Part shown: positions 28,794 through 38,574 of the stretch, one piece after another | How positions within the stretch are numbered: position 1 is the first letter of the stretch | Layout: every line of letters starts with the position of its first letter | NCBI RefSeq assembly: GCF_988243305.1 | Contig: NZ_OZ547136.1 | Reading direction: 5' to 3' (one strand) | DNA: 64,000 nt | Program-made: the position numbers and the translations under genes | The notes under the pieces: generated by a model | The model's database searches: none | The model's input: the letters and a program-made list of their open reading frames with translations, nothing else | What the model was told of the DNA's origin: nothing

Positions 28794-31700
28794 ATGGGAA
28801 AAGGTGGCGGTAAGGCACACACGCCTCGTGAGGCGAAGGATAATCTCAAATCCACGCAGATGATGAGCGTGATTGATGCGATTGGTGAGGGACCGATAGA
28901 TGGCCCGGTGAAAGGCCTGCAGAGTATTCTGGTGAACAAAACCCCGCTGACGGACACGGACGGTAATCCCGTGATACACGGTGTGACCGCGGTCTGGCGT
29001 GCCGGGGAGCAGGAGCAGACACCACCGGAAGGCTTTGAGTCCTCCGGCTCTGAAACTGTACTGGGTGTCGAAGTGACCAGGGCAAAACCGGTAACACGCA
29101 CCATTACGTCAGCGAACATTGACCGCCTGCGGGTGACCTTCGGGGTGCAGTCACTGGTGGAGACCACGTCAAAGGGTGACCGTAATCCGTCCTCTGTCCG
29201 TCTGCTGATTCAGTTACAGCGTAACGGTAACTGGGTGACAGAAAAGGATGTCACCATTAACGGCAAGACCACCTCACAGTTCCTGGCCTCGGTGATTCTG
29301 GATAATCTGCCTCCCCGCCCCTTTAACATCCGGATGGTCAGGGAGACGGCGGACAGCACCACGGACCAGCTGCAGAACAGAACGCTGTGGTCGTCATACA
29401 CCGAAATCATCGATGTGAAACAGTGCTACCCGAACACGGCCATTGTGGGGATGCAGGTGGATGCGGAGCAGTTTGGTGGTCAGCAGATGACGGTGAACTA
29501 CCATATCCGCGGTCGCATCATCCAGGTGCCGTCAAACTATGACCCGGAAAAACGCACGTACAGTGGTATCTGGGACGGCAGTCTGAAACCGGCATACAGC
29601 AACAATCCGGCCTGGTGTCTGTGGGACATGCTGACTCACCCGCGCTACGGCATGGGAAAACGTCTGGGGGCGGCGGATGTGGACAAGTGGGCGCTGTATG
29701 CCATCGGGCAGTACTGCGACCAGATGGTGCCGGATGGCTTCGGGGGCACCGAGCCGCGGATGACCTTCAATGCGTACCTGGCACAACAGCGTAAGGCGTG
29801 GGATGTTCTCAGTGATTTCTGCTCGGCGATGCGCTGTATGCCGGTATGGAACGGCCAGATGCTGACGTTTGTTCAGGACCGCCTGTCGGATGTGGTGTGG
29901 CCGTACACCAACAGCGATGTGGTGGTGGATGATAACGGCGTGGGGTTCCGCTACAGCTTCAGTGCCCTGAAGGACCGGCACGCGGCGGTGGAGGTGAATT
30001 ACACCGACCCGCAGAACGGCTGGCAGACCTCCACGGAACTGGTGGAAGACCCGGAAGCCATACTGCGCTACGGACGCAACCTGCTGAAGATGGACGCGTT
30101 CGGCTGTACCAGCCGCGGTCAGGCCCACCGTGCCGGACTGTGGGTGATAAAGACCGAACTGCTGGAAACGCAGACGGTGGATTTCACGCTCGGGTCTCAG
30201 GGGCTGCGGCACACACCCGGTGACATTATTGAAATCTGTGATAATGACTATGCCGGGACCCTGACCGGCGGACGTGTCCTGTCCATTGATGCTGCCACCC
30301 GCACCCTGACGCTGGACCGTGAGGTTACCCTGCCGGAGACAGGTACATCGGCGGTGAACCTGATTAACGGCAGCGGTAAGCCGGTGAGTGTGGACATCAC
30401 CGCACACCCCGCGCCGGACCGGATACAGGTCAGTACCCTGCCTGATGGTGTGGAGACATACGGGGTGTGGGGACTCTCCCTGCCGTCACTGCGCCGTCGC
30501 CTGTTCCGCTGTGTCTCCATCCGGGAAAACACGGACGGCACCTTTGCCATCACGGCGGTGCAGCACGTACCGGAAAAAGAAGCCATCGTGGATAACGGTG
30601 CCCGCTTTGAGCCGCAGTCAGGTTCCCTGAACAGCGTCATCCCACCGGCAGTGCAGCACCTGACGGTGGAGGTGAGCGCAGCTGACGGCCGGTATCTGGC
30701 GCAGGCGAAATGGGACACGCCGCGGGTGGTGAAGGGTGTGCGCTTCAGTCTGCGCCTGACCAGTGGTAAGGGAACGGATGCCAGACTGGTGACCACCGCC
30801 ATCACCGCAGACACGGAGCACCGTTTCAGCGGCCTGCCGCTCGGGGAATACACCCTGACGGTGCGGGCGATAAACAGCTATGGCCAGCAGGGTGAACCTG
30901 CCACCACCACCTTCCGGATTGCCGCACCGGCAGCACCGTCGCGGATTGAGCTGACGCCGGGCTATTTTCAGATAACCGCAACGCCACATCTTGCCGTTTA
31001 TGACCCGACGGTACAGTTTGAGTTCTGGTTCTCGGAAAAGCGGATTGCGGATATCAGGCAGGTTGAAACCGCAGCCCGCTATCTTGGCTCGGCGCTGTAC
31101 TGGATAGCTGCCAGTATCAATATCAAACCGGGCCATGATTATTATTTTTATATCCGCAGTGTGAATACTGTTGGCAAATCGGCATTCGTGGAGGCTGTCG
31201 GTCGGGCGAGCGATGATGCGGAAGGTTACCTGGATTTTTTCAAAGGAGAAATCGGGAAAACACATCTGGCCCAGGAGCTGTGGACGCAGATTGATAACGG
31301 TCAGCTTGCGCCGGACCTGGCTGAAATCAGGACGTCCATTACGAATGTCAGCAATGAAATCACGCAGACCGTCAATAAAAAACTGGAAAATCAGAGTGCG
31401 GCAATCCAGCAGATACAGAAAGTTCAGGTTGATACAAATAATAACCTGAACAGCATGTGGGCCGTGAAACTGCAGCAGATGCAGGACGGACGCCTTTATA
31501 TTGCGGGTATCGGTGCCGGTATTGAGAATACGCCAGCAGGAATGCAGAGTCAGGTGCTGCTGGCGGCAGACAGGATTGCGATGATTAATCCTGCGAATGG
31601 CAACACAAAGCCGATGTTTGTTGGTCAGGGCGATCAGATATTTATGAATGAAGTGTTCCTGAAATATCTGACGGCTCCCACCATTACCAGCGGCGGTAAT

Positions 31701-32267
31701 CCTCCGGCATTTTCCCTGACACCGGACGGGCGGCTGACGGCGAAAAATGCCGATATCAGCGGTAACGTGAATGCGAACTCCGGGACGCTCAACAACGTCA
31801 CGATTAACGAGAACTGTCGGGTTCTGGGAAAATTGTCCGCGAACCAGATTGAAGGCGATCTCGTTAAAACAGTGGGCAAAGCTTTCCCCCGGGACTCCCG
31901 TGCACCGGAGCGGTGGCCATCAGGGACCATTACCGTCAGGGTTTATGACGATCAGCCGTTTGACCGGCAGATTGTTATTCCGGCGGTGGCATTCAGCGGC
32001 GCTAAACATGAGAAAGAGCATACTGATATTTACTCCTCATGCCGTCTGATAGTGCGGAAAAACGGTGCTGAAATTTATAACCGTACCGCGCTGGATAATA
32101 CGCTGATTTACAGTGGTGTTATTGATATGCCTGCCGGTCACGGTCACATGACACTGGAGTTTTCGGTGTCAGCATGGCTGGTGAATAACTGGTATCCCAC
32201 AGCAAGTATCAGCGATTTGCTGGTTGTGGTGATGAAGAAAGCCACCGCAGGCATCAGTATCAGCTGA
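28794..32267 (+). CDS. Host specificity / central tail fibre protein J
   Basis: 1157 aa; lambda J-like N-terminal and central regions; divergent C-terminus. Confidence 0.9.
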
Positions 32268-32334: not shown

Positions 32335-32934
32335 ATGCGTAAAGTTTGTGCAGCCATTTTGTCCGCAGCCATCTGTCTGTCCGTATCCGGTGCGCCTGCA
32401 TGGGCGTCTGAACATCAGTCCACACTGAGCGCGGGGTATCTTCATGCCCGTACGAACGCTCCCGGCAGCGATAATCTGAACGGGATTAACGTGAAATACC
32501 GTTATGAGTTTACGGACGCGCTGGGGCTGATTACGTCCTTCAGTTATGCCAATGCTGAGGATGAGCAAAAAACGCACTACAGCGATACCCGCTGGCATGA
32601 AGATTCCGTGCGTAACCGCTGGTTCAGCGTGATGGCGGGGCCGTCTGTACGCGTGAATGAATGGTTCAGCGCGTATGCGATGGTGGGTGTGGCTTACAGC
32701 CGTGTGTCGACTTTCTCCGGGGATTATCTCCGCGTAACTGACAACAAGGGGAAAACGCACGACGTGCTGACCGGAAGTGATGACGGTCGCCACAGCAACA
32801 CGTCTCTGGCGTGGGGGGCTGGCGTGCAGTTTAACCCGACCGAATACGTGACCATTGACCTTGCTTATGAAGGTTCCGGTAGTGGCGACTGGCGAACGGA
32901 TGCATTTATTGTTGGTATCGGATACCGTTTCTGA
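32335..32934 (+). CDS. lom: Lom/Ail-family outer membrane beta-barrel protein
   Basis: Signal peptide, alternating beta-strand pattern, C-terminal AFIVGIGYRF; canonical lambda moron position after J. Confidence 0.85.
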   Translation: MRKVCAAILSAAICLSVSGAPAWASEHQSTLSAGYLHARTNAPGSDNLNGINVKYRYEFTDALGLITSFSYANAEDEQKTHYSDTRWHEDSVRNRWFSVMAGPSVRVNEWFSAYAMVGVAYSRVSTFSGDYLRVTDNKGKTHDVLTGSDDGRHSNTSLAWGAGVQFNPTEYVTIDLAYEGSGSGDWRTDAFIVGIGYRF

Positions 32935-33085: not shown

Positions 33086-36000
33086 ATGACAGTAAAAATT
33101 TCTGGCGTGCTTAAAGATGGCACAGGAAAACCAGTACAGAACTGCACCATTGTGCTGAAGGCCAGACGAACCAGCAGCACGGTGGTGGTGAACACAGTTG
33201 CCTCAGAAAACCCGGATGAAGCCGGGCGTTATACAATGGACGTCGAGTATGGTCAGTACAGCGTCAGTCTGTTGGTGGAGGGATTCCCGCCGTCACACGC
33301 CGGGACCATCACCGTGTATGAAGACTCACAACCGGGTACGCTGAATGATTTTCTCGGTGCCATGACGGAGGATGATGCCCGTCCGGAGGCACTGCGCCGT
33401 TTTGAAGTGATGGTGGAAGAGGTGGCGCGTAACGCGTCCGCAGTGGCACAGAACACGGCAGCCGCGAAGAAGTCAGCCGGCGATGCCAGCACATCAGCCC
33501 GTGAGGCGGCAACCCATGCGACTGATGCTGCAGGCTCAGCACGTGCAGCCAGCACGTCAGCCGGACAGGCCGCGTCGTCGGCTCAGTCAGCGTCTTCCAG
33601 CGCAGGAACGGCATCAATAAAGGCCACTGAAGCCTCAAAAAGTGCTGCTGCTGCAGAGTCATCAAAAAGCGCGGCAGCTACCAGCGCCAGTGCCGCGAAA
33701 ACGTCAGAAACGAATGCCGCAGCATCACAAAAATCGGCAGCCACTTCTGCATCCACAGCGACCACGAAGGCGTCAGAAGCTGCCACCTCGGCACGGGGTG
33801 CGGCGGCCTCAAAAGAGGCAGCGAAATCTTCAGAAACGAATGCATCCTCGAGCGCCAGCAGCGCAGCTTCCTCGGCAACGGCGACAGCAAATTCTGCGAA
33901 GGCGGCAAAAACGTCCGAGACGAACGCTAAGTCTTCTGAGACGGCAGCGGAACAGAGCGCCTCAGCTGCGGCAGGTTCAAAAACAGCGGCTGCATTATCT
34001 GCCAGTGCCGCGTCAACAAGTGCCGGGCAGGCCTCAGCCAGTGCCACCGCTGCCGGAAAGTCGGCAGAAAGTGCCGCCTCGTCTGCTTCAACAGCCACAA
34101 CGAAGGCTGGCGAAGCCACTGAACAGGCCAGTGCAGCAGCGAGGTCTGCTTCCGCAGCGAAGACATCCGAGACGAACGCGAAAGCGTCGGAAACCAGCGC
34201 AGAATCCTCAAAAACGGCTGCCGCATCGTCCGCTAGTTCGGCGGCGTCATCGGCATCATCGGCGTCAGCTTCAAAAGATGAGGCGACCAGACAGGCGTCA
34301 GCAGCGAAGGGCAGCGCCACGACAGCATCCACGAAGGCGACAGAGGCAACTGGCAGTGCGACGGCGGCAGCACAGAGCAAAAGTACGGCGGAATCCGCGG
34401 CAACGCGCGCCGAGACAGCGGCAAAACGGGCAGAGGATATTGCATCCGCCGTGGCGCTTGAGGATGCAAGTACGACGAAAAAGGGGATAGTACAGCTCAG
34501 CAGTGCAACCAACAGCACATCTGAAACGCTTGCCGCGACACCGAAGGCAGTTAAAGCAGCGAATGACAATGCGAATGGCAGGGTACCATCTAACCGAAAA
34601 GTTAACGGGAAAGCACTGACTGCGGATATAACATTAACACCGAAAGATATTGGCACTTTAAATTCAGTAACGATCTCTTTCTCTGGCGGGGCAGGGTGGT
34701 TCAAACTGGCAACGGTTACCATGCCACAAGCGAGTTCCATCGTTTACATCGCATTGATTGGTGGCGCTGGTTACAACGTCGGCTCCCCACAGCAGGCAGG
34801 CATTTCAGAACTGGTTCTACGAGCAGGCAATGGAAAGCCCAAAGGGATTACCGGAGCTTTGTGGAAGCGTACAGCCGTCGGATTAACGAATTTCGCCTGG
34901 ATCAACACATCCGGCGATACATATGATATTTACGTTGAGATTGGCAATTATGCGACGAGTGTAAATATCCATTGGGATTGTACTACAAATGCGTCAGTTT
35001 CTATTTATACCTCGCCAACATATTCAGCGAGTAAGCCTTCCAGCGTTACCGGTGGTGTTGTTTATACGATGTATAGCTCACATCAGAAACCTACACCATC
35101 AGATATTGGAGCGCTGCCAACGACTGGAGGGACTATTTCAGGTCCGTTGTCTGTTACTGATGGGATCACCGGGGCACTGAAGGGGAACGCCGATACCGCG
35201 ACGAAACTTGCGGCAGTCCCAAAAATTAACGGTGTTAAGTTTGATGGCTCGGCGGATATTAACCTCACGCCGGAAAATATTGGTGCATTTGCCCGACGTT
35301 CGACGGGGGCTTATGCGGATTCGGATGGAGCCGTTCCCTGGAATGCCGAATCAGGCGCTTACAATGTCACCCGCTCTGGCGACAGCTATATTCTGGTTAA
35401 CTTCTATACCGGAGTCGGAAGTTGCCGGACCCTGCAGATGAAGGCGCATTACAGAAATCGTGGTCTGTTCTACCGTTCTTCAAGAGACGGTTATGGTTTT
35501 GAGGAAGACTGGGCAGAAGTTTATACCTCGAAAAATCTTCCACCAGAAAGCTACCCAGTCGGCGCACCAATCCCGTGGCCATCAGATACCGTTCCGTCTG
35601 GTTATGCCCTGATGCAGGGGCAGACTTTTGACAAATCTGCTTACCCGAAACTTGCAGCTGCTTATCCGTCAGGCGTGATCCCTGATATGCGTGGCTGGAC
35701 GATTAAGGGCAAACCTGCCAGTGGTCGAGCCGTATTATCTCAGGAACAGGACGGCATTAAATCGCACACCCACAGCGCCAGTGCATCCAGTACGGATTTG
35801 GGGACGAAAACCACGTCGTCGTTTGATTATGGTACTAAGTCTTCAAATGCCACTGGTGACCATAACCACAGCCGAGGCACTATGGAAATTACCGGTACTC
35901 TCGGTTACTTCAGAAGTGATAGCGGTAATTTCTATACAGCAAGTGGAGCATTTACACTGGGTGGCTCTGCGCCAGCCCATGGATTTACGGGCTCTCAATT

Positions 36001-36214
36001 TACTTATGGTGTTCCTGTAAACTTTAACGCTTCCAGAACCTGGTCTGGTGCCACAAGCACTACAGGTAACCATGCGCACTCTGTTCCAATTGGTGCTCAT
36101 GCGCACTCCGTTGCGATTGGTTCACATGGACACACCATCACCGTTAACGCTGCTGGTAACGCGGAAAACACCGTCAAAAACATCGCATTTAACTATATTG
36201 TGAGGCTTGCATAA
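33086..36214 (+). CDS. stf: Side tail fibre protein (Stf-like)
   Basis: 1042 aa; Ala/Ser-rich repeat region with repeated (K)T/SSETNA motif; C-terminal HxH repeats ([23 protein letters not shown]). Confidence 0.85.
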
Positions 36215-36798
36215 TGGCATTCAGAATGAGTGAACAAGCACGGACCATAAAAATTTATAATCTGCTGGCCGGAACTAATGAATTTATTGGTGAAGGTGAC
36301 GCATATATTCCGCCTCATACAGGTCTGCCAGCAAACAGTACCGATATTGCACCACCAGATATTCCTGCTGGCTTTGTGGCTGTTTTCAACAGTGATGAGT
36401 CATCGTGGCATCTCTTTGAAGACCATCGGGGTAAAACGGTTTATGACGTAGCGTCAGGGGACGAGTTATTTATTTCTGAACTCGGTCCGTTACCGGAAAA
36501 TGTTACCTGGTTATCGCCGGAAGGGGAGTTTCAGAAGTGGAACGGCACAGCCTGGGTGAAGGATACGGAAGCAGAAAAACTGTTCCGGATCCGGGAGGCG
36601 GAAGAAACAAAAAACAACCTGATGCAGGTAGCCAGTGAGCATATTGCGCCGCTTCAGGATGCTGCAGATCTGGAAATTGCAACGGAGGAAGAAACCTCAT
36701 TGCTGGAAGCCTGGAAAAAGTATCGGGTATTGCTGAACCGTGTTGATACATCAACAGCACCTGATATTGAGTGGCCTGCAAATCCTGTCAGGGAGTAA
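36214..36798 (+). CDS. tfa: Tail fibre assembly protein (Tfa)
   Basis: 194 aa; TAATG overlap with stf; Tfa-like sequence. Confidence 0.8.
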
Positions 36799-36852
36799 TC
36801 ATTGGTATTATGCCGCAGCACGTCTTAAGCAAGAACGTGCTGCGGTTGGATG

Positions 36853-37521
36853 CTATTTTTTCCCTGAAGCGGAAAACATTACTACAGTACCTTGAACCTT
36901 GGTTTTAACATTCTCGAAATGCTCTGAGAGTATATGTGTTAAGCCTTCTTCGGAATCTTTTGTGTTTGAAAAGATGCCTTTCTGATTGTAAATGCGCATC
37001 AGTTTTTGACCGAAGCTATTGTGCACAACTCCATCGCCAAGAATTGTGGCTCCGTATAGAGTTCCATCGTCAGTTAAGGCCTGCGCCGCATTGCGTATTA
37101 CACAGCTTTTTGTAGATATATTTCCAGGCAGGCAGTGAAGAAGGTAAAACATGGAAATGGAATCAAATTGACCATGTAACGCCGCGGGATAAGGTTCAAA
37201 AACATCATGGCTAATTTTATGTTTAATTTTTGATTCCCCAGCCCTTGTAGATGCCGCGTTCAGGCTAGCTTCGTTCAAATCCATTAAAGATATCAGACTA
37301 CTCTCAGGTACGTGAGTAAGGTAAAACCCAGTTCCAACACCAATATCCAGATGGTTGTTACCTACATGTTCCAGAAAGTGTGGAAGAAGGTGTTCCTTTG
37401 TAGGACATCCCCATGCAAGCCGATTTGATACTCCCAAAACCCACCAGTCATAAAGCTTTAGGGTAAGTGGTGTGTAAATTTTAGCCCCATCATCTGTGTT
37501 TTTTTTCATTGATTTCACCAT
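36853..37521 (-). CDS. Class I SAM-dependent methyltransferase (moron)
   Basis: Motif I LDIGVGTGFY, acidic post-I residue, motif FDSISMFYLLHCLP; AT-rich, opposite strand to the tail genes. Confidence 0.7.
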   Translation of the reverse strand: MVKSMKKNTDDGAKIYTPLTLKLYDWWVLGVSNRLAWGCPTKEHLLPHFLEHVGNNHLDIGVGTGFYLTHVPESSLISLMDLNEASLNAASTRAGESKIKHKISHDVFEPYPAALHGQFDSISMFYLLHCLPGNISTKSCVIRNAAQALTDDGTLYGATILGDGVVHNSFGQKLMRIYNQKGIFSNTKDSEEGLTHILSEHFENVKTKVQGTVVMFSASGKK

Positions 37522-37577
37522 GTTATAGTTTTATTTGTGAATTAAATCAATTATGGCGATGAATTACAAGGGGTTAA

Positions 37578-37847
37578 ATGCTGCCGCAGCATAGCGATAT
37601 TGAAATAGCCTGGTATGCTTCGATACAGCAGGAGCCGAATGGCTGGAAGACCGTCACCACACAGTTCTACATCCAGGAATTCAGTGAGTATATTGCGCCA
37701 CTGCAGGATGCTGTAGATCTGGAAATCGCAACGGAGGAAGAAAGATCGTTGCTGGAGGCATGGAATAAATATCGGGTATTGTTGAATCGTGTTGATACAT
37801 CAACTGCACCTGATATTGAGTGGCCTGCAAATCCTGTCAGGGAGTAA
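37578..37847 (+). pseudogene. Tfa C-terminal fragment (duplicated 3' end of tfa)
   Basis: Last about 50 codons and 3' UTR (37692-37896) are about 90% identical to tfa 36643-36847; N-terminus unrelated. Confidence 0.6.
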
Positions 37848-38443
37848 TCATTGGGATTATGCCGCAGACACGTCGTATGCAGGAACGTGCTGCGGTTAGT
37901 TTGTGAGCTTTCGATAGTGGTTGTTATTTTTGCCCTTATTTGTTCCGGAGGCCATGGTTCAATGGTCCGTCTGCCCCCTGTGGTGATGTCAGCAAAATCA
38001 GCCACTGCGCGAACCACAATAGCCCGGGAAGATGCTGAAGATCACCAGGTAAAGCTGTCAGCGCAGAAACTGGAAGAACTGCTCGCATCAATGGTTAAGG
38101 ATGAGGTTGATCGCAATGATGGGATTTATTGACGTCAGCGAGAGCAGAAGGAAGAACTGAATAACCTGAATGATTTACGCTCAATCAGAGCGATGATGAT
38201 TGGCAGTAATTAGCGGTCAATTTCGGTTTTTTTGGCTGTGCGCTCCCCGCCCAGCATTGCGCGTCAATTAGCCCCAAAAAAACGAAAAAGTTACAATCAA
38301 GTAAAAAATTCCTTCTGCAAAACTAAAAAAGATTTCAATAAAATCAGACAGTTAAAAACATAAAAAAAAGTACAAAAAAACATCTCAAAGTCTTGTTTTT
38401 TGCTTCAAATACAATTGGTTATTGTGTTTTTTGAAACCTACCA

Positions 38444-38560
38444 GTGTGGTACATGGATATCGATACCACCGCCAATTATAAGCTGGGCGGTGCACAGCAA
38501 CACGATAGCGTACGCCTCGATCCGTGGGTGTTTATGTTCTCAGCAGGATATCGTTTTTAA
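38444..38560 (+). other. ompW: 3'-terminal fragment of ompW at the prophage right junction (attR region)
   Basis: In-frame translation VWYMDIDTTANYKLGGAQQHDSVRLDPWVFMFSAGYRF* matches the OmpW C-terminus as I recall it; an in-frame stop lies at 38432, so the upstream part of the gene is absent here. Confidence 0.7.
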
Positions 38561-38574
38561 TTCCGCACAAAAAC

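Follow-up and report, generated by a model that had tools for sequence, protein, structure and literature searches.

Extra genes inserted among the conserved genes of lambdoid phages, such as lom and bor, are known as morons, a concept said to come from Juhala, Hendrix and colleagues. Tail-fibre and tfa modules are exchanged horizontally among lambda, P2, Mu and related phages, and the region between the tail-fibre genes and attR is the usual site of accessory genes. In Escherichia coli K-12, the DLP12 prophage carries the arrangement tfaD-ybcY-tfaX (b0561-b0563), in which ybcY is a pseudogene and tfaX stops after 61 codons, followed by appY-ompT. The literature on ybcY and tfaX consists of incidental mentions: a promoter found by SELEX (systematic evolution of ligands by exponential enrichment), H-NS binding, an Hha toxicity screen without phenotype, and use as a neighbour marker of ompT. 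Here we describe the corresponding locus in a stretch of 64,000 nucleotides (the window) from contig NZ_OZ547136.1 of the NCBI RefSeq assembly GCF_988243305.1, where a class I S-adenosylmethionine (SAM)-dependent methyltransferase gene lies on the opposite strand between an intact tfa and a second copy of the tfa 3′ end. The locus is probably the ybcY-tfaX moron module of lambdoid (DLP12-type) prophages in intact form, with tfa-derived flanks that one old duplication left and that serve as portable homology, a small-molecule enzyme expressed in the lysogen, and tfaX as a remnant.

The window and DLP12 share gene order, orientation, the hairpin and the N-terminus of tfaX, with 96.6% nucleotide identity over 1465 nucleotides (nt) and closer agreement within the methyltransferase open reading frame (ORF) (Table 1). 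Unlike in K-12, the methyltransferase is intact, tfaX reaches the native tfa stop codon and terminator (the K-12 homology ends at 37824), and the module stands at the end of an ompW prophage with a full set of tail genes. An undisrupted methyltransferase of moron type, placed at the end of the tail-fibre module between an intact tfa and a second tfa 3′ end, had been proposed in the original prediction, made from the sequence alone, and this arrangement is confirmed. The 222-codon ORF is intact and matches Pfam Methyltransf_12, 23, 25 and 11, and the suggested homology search places the protein in the YbcY family (phrog_2132; E 4.2e-157, with positions 1-218 of the 218-position profile aligned to residues 5-222). 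A 90%-identity cluster of 6589 sequences has a representative with exactly the same 222 residues. What appeared odd in the raw sequence is thereby explained as a standard annotated prophage module, which is already annotated in the K-12 reference genome and is ordinary and common to most E. coli.

Matches to the 2.25-kb region at ≥80% coverage are present in 364 complete E. coli genomes, where the order annotated by PGAP is tfa, class I SAM methyltransferase, partial tfa missing the N-terminus, DUF4376 pseudogene and ompW fragment. Taken by itself, the DNA of the methyltransferase gene occurs at 4880 places, each with no less than 95% identity, in 3835 of 5426 complete E. coli genomes (about 70%). 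It is present in only 15 of 50,697 phage records, all of them E. coli phages with at least 95% protein identity, and the record of phage PhiR26_1 names the protein YbcY. Active lambdoid phages with the module include PhiR26_1, 2G7b and ev243; the last two have other fibre genes and no full tfa, and their cassette runs from a 170-nt left tfa remnant (36678) to 37802. A P2-like prophage near smpB contains a P2-type fibre gene, a 194-residue tfa, the opposite-strand methyltransferase, an 89-residue tfaX and DinI.

Two wider comparisons help to define the element. Like lom and bor, the methyltransferase gene is missing from close relatives and follows the tail-fibre genes, and its promoter-like site, hairpin and lower G+C may be further resemblances; it lies between conserved phage genes and is missing in two genomes with the same ompW prophage. 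Unlike these morons, it stands between two copies of a conserved phage coding segment, which offer homology for exchange and loss, and its product is predicted to be a cytoplasmic enzyme, not an envelope protein. In lambda, the gene after tfa is ea47. With regard to tail-fibre module exchange, a block covering 36089-37919 (the stf 3′ end, tfa, methyltransferase and tfaX) is colinear and about 93% identical in the P2-like prophage; it departs from the usual fibre and tfa exchange in that it encloses a non-fibre passenger gene far less diverged than its fibre-related flanks.

Table 1 Features of the locus, with positions in the window.
Feature	Position	Strand	Evidence
tfa, intact 194-residue tail fibre assembly chaperone of lambda Tfa type	36214-36798	+	ORF; phrog_105 'tail fiber assembly', E 7.6e-100; annotation in matching genomes
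Left repeat: tfa codons 137-194 (last 58), stop codon and 49 nt of 3′ flank with hairpin	36622-36847	+	89.8% identical to 37671-37897
Left-type hairpin with 11-base-pair stem CCGCAGCACGT/ACGTGCTGCGG, between convergent tfa and methyltransferase	36813-36845	.	Folding, alignment
Class I SAM-dependent methyltransferase, intact orthologue of the K-12 ybcY pseudogene (phrog_2132)	36853-37521	-	Pfam; phrog_2132; 99.4% nucleotide identity to K-12 ybcY
Methyltransferase promoter region: TTAACC-16-CATAAT (37577-37550) and TTGATT-17-TATAAC (37550-37522)	37522-37577	-	Consensus scan, direct reading
tfaX-like ORF of 89 codons: about 28 unrelated N-terminal codons, then the C-terminal Caudo_TAP part of a second tfa allele	37578-37847	+	phrog_2341, E 4e-61
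Right repeat: tfa-derived coding part of tfaX, stop codon and lambda-type hairpin (37862-37895)	37671-37897	+	Repeat search, alignment, folding
DUF4376 / tail-fibre-like pseudogene remnant	37944-38213	+	PGAP in three matching loci; ORF 37851-38132 matches phrog_7703 and phrog_1141
Prophage end (attR region) and 3′ ompW fragment	38220-38562	+	G+C 0.32-0.34; PGAP 'OmpW family, missing N-terminus' at the equivalent position; yciE/F/G and trpA/B ORFs

Direct repeats, cassette ends and empty sites

In the 8 kb examined, no reported repeat pair is longer than that of the two tfa 3′ ends. A first part of 197 nt (36622-36818 versus 37671-37867, 90% identical) resumes past a 1-nt indel as a second part of 29 nt (36819-36847 versus 37869-37897, 90%), and together 203 of 226 positions are identical. 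The limits originally given (36643-36847 and 37692-37896, about 90% identity) were correct, and the repeat search extends them by some 20 nt leftward. Homology fades on the left at around 36637/37686 and ends abruptly on the right just past the hairpin, and within the repeats a stretch of about 50 nt (36754-36805) is identical in both copies. What is repeated is the coding sequence for the C-terminal helical domain, the conserved part of Tfa chaperones that many phages share.

Synonymous divergence (dS) between the two copies is 0.33, and the changes are mainly synonymous (omega 0.2). The hairpins are of different types. The left-type hairpin folds at -30.6 kcal/mol on the plus strand (z -5.9) and -23.9 kcal/mol on the minus strand (z -4.8), has no U-tract on the methyltransferase strand, and adjoins the 3′ end of the methyltransferase gene in every context examined, the methyltransferase stop codon lying 5 nt from the left repeat end. 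In EDL933 this hairpin stands beside the methyltransferase stop even though no tfa coding sequence adjoins it. The right hairpin folds at -24.1 kcal/mol, and the 3′ end of lambda's own tfa consists of this right-type hairpin and its downstream bases. Because the copies are about 10% diverged and bear different hairpin types, they are two diverged tfa alleles and not a fresh duplication.

Divergence along the locus is mosaic. Between the window and the P2-like copy, dS is 0.021 for the methyltransferase, 0.395 for tfa (omega 0.12) and 0.405 for tfaX (omega 0.21). The density of mismatches follows the same pattern, at about 1.3% in 36790-37540, about 10% to the left and about 20% to the right; counted per 50 nt, mismatches number 0-1 over most of 36890-37540 and rise to about 4-9 in tfa and to about 10 in the right repeat. 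A comparison of nine contexts, among them K-12, EDL933 and remnants in E2348/69 and beside potB, gives identities of 98.9-100% for the methyltransferase ORF, against 86-99% for the left repeat and 83-100% for the right. The unique core is young and close to clonal, whether in lambda-like, Nesevirus-type or P2-like prophages or in decayed remnants, and both flanks are mosaic.

The ends of the cassette also vary among matches. In a sample spread over the matches (up to 60 rows), homology on the left stops at 36627, 36667, 36678, 36682, 36701, 36779, 36807, 36813 or 36826, and on the right at 37607, 37802, 37824 or 37897, or continues further. All of these variant ends are assigned to the two repeats, and the tfa-derived flanks are the sites of recombination.

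The comparison with prophages lacking the insert, which the original prediction had also called for, was made with a synthetic query in which tfa runs straight into the sequence past the right repeat, empty sites being recognised by their span and number of pieces. Within the best 30 rows, at least two genomes (strains 190693 and EFF60) have an empty site in the same ompW prophage, with tfa followed directly by the DUF4376 remnant, and the other 28 rows have the filled form, which favours rare deletion. The single repeat at each empty site is a hybrid that joins the left-type coding sequence to the right-type hairpin, as would be expected of a crossover in the identical stretch noted above. 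These hybrids indicate that homologous recombination operates in the repeats, so that of the proposed insertion or recombination footprint the recombination part stands, while local insertion does not fit the diverged alleles and the presence of the module elsewhere.

On this basis, recombination of the RecA type between the tfa-derived flanks and the many tfa alleles of E. coli would move the cassette among phage backgrounds and occasionally delete it. The locus provides a clear example of a passenger gene flanked by conserved phage coding sequence that is exchanged or lost by homologous recombination in lambdoid and P2-like prophages. What the analysis adds to the existing annotation is the identification of the repeats as old, diverged tfa alleles, which act as recombination substrates through which a nearly clonal passenger gene is gained, exchanged and lost.

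The EDL933 (O157:H7) and enteropathogenic E2348/69 loci show further arrangements of the cassette. In EDL933, a cluster of katN with yciE-like, yciF-like and yciG-like genes (2337-4550 of the locus) lies in the prophage between tfa and the methyltransferase cassette. We considered whether this yciGFE-katN set was a recent capture of the yciEFG genes that adjoin the ompW prophage and rejected it, as DNA identity is only 74%, the level of a diverged paralogous set. In E2348/69, positions 3140-6025 of the locus hold a decayed DLP12-type remnant with an integrase fragment, a tfa fragment, an intact 218-residue methyltransferase and ompT, which suggests that the host retains the methyltransferase after phage decay.

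The second tfa piece and the origin of the duplication

In Tfa proteins, a variable N-terminal domain binds the fibre and a conserved C-terminal helical domain trimerises (PMC9608196, summarising work on Mu Tfa). The 194-residue Tfa of the window has both PF28596 (Caudo_TAP_N) and PF02413, whereas tfaX has PF02413 only, that is, the trimerisation domain without the N-terminal fibre-binding domain. Tfa profiles align only to tfaX residues 29-88 or thereabouts, and the first 28 or so match no Tfa family. The ORF is covered overall by phrog_2341, an 88-residue PHROGs family whose function is unannotated, and PGAP labels it 'tail fiber assembly protein, incomplete, missing N-terminus'.

The tfaX piece is variable in length and in its C-terminal part. 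K-12 TfaX has its first 61 residues in common with the window ORF and then stops; in PhiR26_1 and ev243 an unrelated tail follows 'VDTS' to give 101 residues, and in 2G7b the gene is frameshifted. Variants in the protein database range from 48 to 142 residues, commonly 82, 61 and 55. An intact 89-codon form with 83% protein identity is present in another lineage (P0142). Among 12 longer or variant matches that were read, none was a full-length tfa with the 28 N-terminal residues of tfaX, and the longer forms were read-throughs or fusions. Most likely, tfaX is a gene remnant. It would be a decaying one, whose retention is due mainly to the overlap of its 5′ part with the methyltransferase promoter region.

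A functional tfaX, acting as a mini-chaperone made of the C-terminal trimerisation domain or as a modulator of Tfa/Stf assembly paired with the methyltransferase, is unlikely, though it accounts for some of the data. The ORF has stayed intact both here and in a lineage whose protein differs by 17%, with an overall omega of 0.21; it has a dedicated PHROGs family and an AGGGG 4 nt upstream of the ATG; and the methyltransferase and the 5′ part of tfaX are always linked. The low omega could come from gene conversion with functional tfa genes, and the linkage is explained by the overlap with the methyltransferase promoter. Moreover, many widespread variants cut or frameshift the C-terminal domain, the 31 tfaX-specific N-terminal codons have an omega of 0.57 against the P2-like copy on 7 changes, PGAP treats the gene as a partial pseudogene, and the E2348/69 remnant retains the methyltransferase without tfaX beyond 37607.

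For the duplication itself, we propose a single ancient origin in an out-of-register (illegitimate) crossover between two phages. The first would have had tfa, the left-type hairpin and the methyltransferase just downstream, and the second would have been broken within its own tfa at around codon 136; the outcome would be an intact tfa and a partial second copy. Since the repeats are diverged and the whole module is already present in K-12 DLP12, lambdoid phages and P2-like prophages, the duplication would be an old joint inherited with the module and not a local insertion footprint.

The original prediction had taken the repeats as the mark of gene acquisition by this prophage. One form of this idea is a local insertion of the methyltransferase at the tfa 3′ end, with the repeats duplicated in the event. 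The direct repeats do flank the gene exactly, up to the short distance between its stop codon and the left repeat, and an 'empty' version of the same prophage exists. This idea is nevertheless disfavoured by copies that are 10% diverged and end in different hairpin types, by the identical tripartite module in DLP12, other lambdoid phages and P2-like prophages, and by an empty form that combines parts of both copies, the product to be expected if repeats that were already there had crossed over. We consider a local insertion very improbable.

We are equally doubtful that the repeats are conserved as two genes for the Rfam small RNA IS009 instead of being tfa remnants. The model RF02111 does score 224.5 bits at 36557-36755, above its gathering score of 117, and 112.5 bits at 37601-37804, so that the right copy falls just short of it. 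The model is aligned to tfa coding sequence in the sense strand, and the mainly synonymous substitutions between the copies are a sign of protein-coding constraint. The RF02111 family may itself describe conserved tfa/tfaX sequence and not a real small RNA.

The methyltransferase and its likely chemistry

The real start of the methyltransferase is probably the second ATG, at 37509, because most homologues have 218 residues, the family profile begins at residue 5 and a GGTGA Shine-Dalgarno sequence precedes 37509. The annotated start (ATG at 37521) lies four codons earlier and directly abuts the -10-like TATAAC. Promoter-like hexamers of the sigma-70 type were found upstream by a consensus scan, in a region where such sites are no commoner than in shuffled sequence. 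Genomic SELEX data list a TTGATT-17-TATAAC promoter and an H-NS site in the K-12 ybcY<>tfaX spacer (PMC3946193), and that promoter sequence is conserved in the window. The gene had been described as AT-rich, which is true to a moderate degree only, with G+C of 0.39-0.45 in the methyltransferase region versus 0.47-0.53 in the flanks. The enzyme would be made in the lysogen independently of the late operon and would probably be modulated by H-NS.

The AlphaFold2 model of the protein has a predicted local distance difference test (pLDDT) score of 90.5. The protein has the Rossmann-like alpha/beta fold of class I SAM methyltransferases, including the SAM-binding GxGxG motif and, where beta-2 ends, an acidic residue. 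Residues invariant among homologues include motif I, D77, an N-terminal Y-D-W-W helix and the sequence YNxKGIFSN. Fold searches returned small-molecule methyltransferases in a flat ranking, none of them a specific assignment, and a sequence search of solved structures gave weak matches to juvenile-hormone acid methyltransferase (JHAMT) and UbiG only (E about 1e-3 to 1e-6). The NCBIfam models matched generically and below threshold (PmtA 15.7, RquA 16.9 and CpaM 18 bits, against cut-offs of 390, 175 and 180), and PADLOC gave no match. Structural neighbours among small-molecule and lipid class I methyltransferases, for example a bacterial phosphatidylethanolamine N-methyltransferase (8ys9), JHAMT (7ec0), MM_2633 (3dtn) and Coq5/UbiG, are only 11-21% identical, and unlike these the YbcY-type family has the Y-D-W-W helix and YNxKGIFSN as specific features.

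The nine homologues whose surroundings were compared (56-90% identity; Salmonella, Enterobacter, Yersinia, Erwinia, Aeromonas, Citrobacter and E. coli islands) each stand alone, and no neighbouring gene recurs among them that could hint at a function. This highly conserved and very prevalent prophage enzyme resembles small-molecule or lipid methyltransferases rather than DNA methyltransferases, and it may methylate a small, probably lipophilic, metabolite and not DNA.

A more specific version of this proposal is speculative, and we give it little weight. It holds that the substrate is membrane-associated and lipophilic, such as a phospholipid head group or a quinone- or isoprenoid-like molecule, and that the gene is a widespread lysogenic-conversion function altering the envelope, spread between unrelated phage families with tfa 3′ ends as portable homology arms. 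Were this true, such an envelope-altering function would be present in about 70% of E. coli genomes and intact in decayed remnants beside ompT.

Action on nucleic acid, as anti-restriction or epigenetic protection of phage DNA, is most improbable. DNA methyltransferases are frequent in phages, and a related prophage in CFSAN061761 has a separately annotated one. The DNA methyltransferase motifs (D/N/S)PP(Y/F/W), PCQ and ENV were, however, not found in the 222-residue sequence, and there was no DNA methyltransferase among the best structural neighbours.

Several points weigh against the interpretation of the locus as an old ybcY-tfaX module with a lysogen-expressed small-molecule enzyme and a decaying tfaX. 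The K-12 promoter and H-NS data stem from a pseudogene locus. The two empty-site genomes fit a deletion and an ancestral pre-insertion state alike, and the single illegitimate crossover is a reconstruction and not an observation. The 89-codon tfaX is intact in two lineages at a dS of 0.4, with the omega given above and a plausible ribosome-binding site. Finally, the structural neighbours of the enzyme share little sequence identity with it, and no NCBIfam model comes near its cut-off.

Setting at the end of the ompW prophage

The right arm of a lambdoid prophage is present in the window, with J at 28794-32267, lom at 32335-32934 and stf at 33086-36214 leading into tfa (36214-36798). The prophage is integrated in ompW, upstream of yciE-yciF-yciG-trpA. 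The ompW 3′ fragment (about 38437-38562) represents the last 40 or so codons and is followed by yciE, yciF, yciG, trpA and trpB on the minus strand. The methyltransferase cassette is therefore placed between the tail-fibre genes and attR, in a non-essential region. Genomes of the O104:H4 outbreak lineage share the ompW-prophage end found in the window. The DUF4376 remnant between tfaX and attR implies that fragments of at least two further fibre-related genes follow tfa.

A duplicated tfa next to a tail-fibre gene is typical of the invertible segments of Mu, P1 and e14, and the original prediction had named a nearby invertase as the finding that would overturn it. An invertible cassette of the Gin/Cin/Pin type, with the second tfa piece as the alternative chaperone of a host-range switch, is refuted by the direct orientation of the copies and the lack of an invertase, there being no serine-recombinase motif in six-frame translations of the whole window, no inverted repeat above 24 nt in length at 75% complementarity in the 8 kb searched for repeats and no alternative fibre C-terminus present.

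Two minor observations concern other genes of the prophage. In stf, positions 33461-34347 contain several families of short direct repeats with spacings that are multiples of 21 nt, which correspond to the heptad-like repeats, rich in Ala, Ser and Thr, that the side tail fibre protein has in its N-terminal half. At 18796-19401, off-diagonal BLAST matches to a related prophage are shifted by 162 nt, which suggests a 162-nt tandem repeat in a head-morphogenesis gene; in CFSAN061761, the annotation of its counterpart is that of a frameshifted portal protein.

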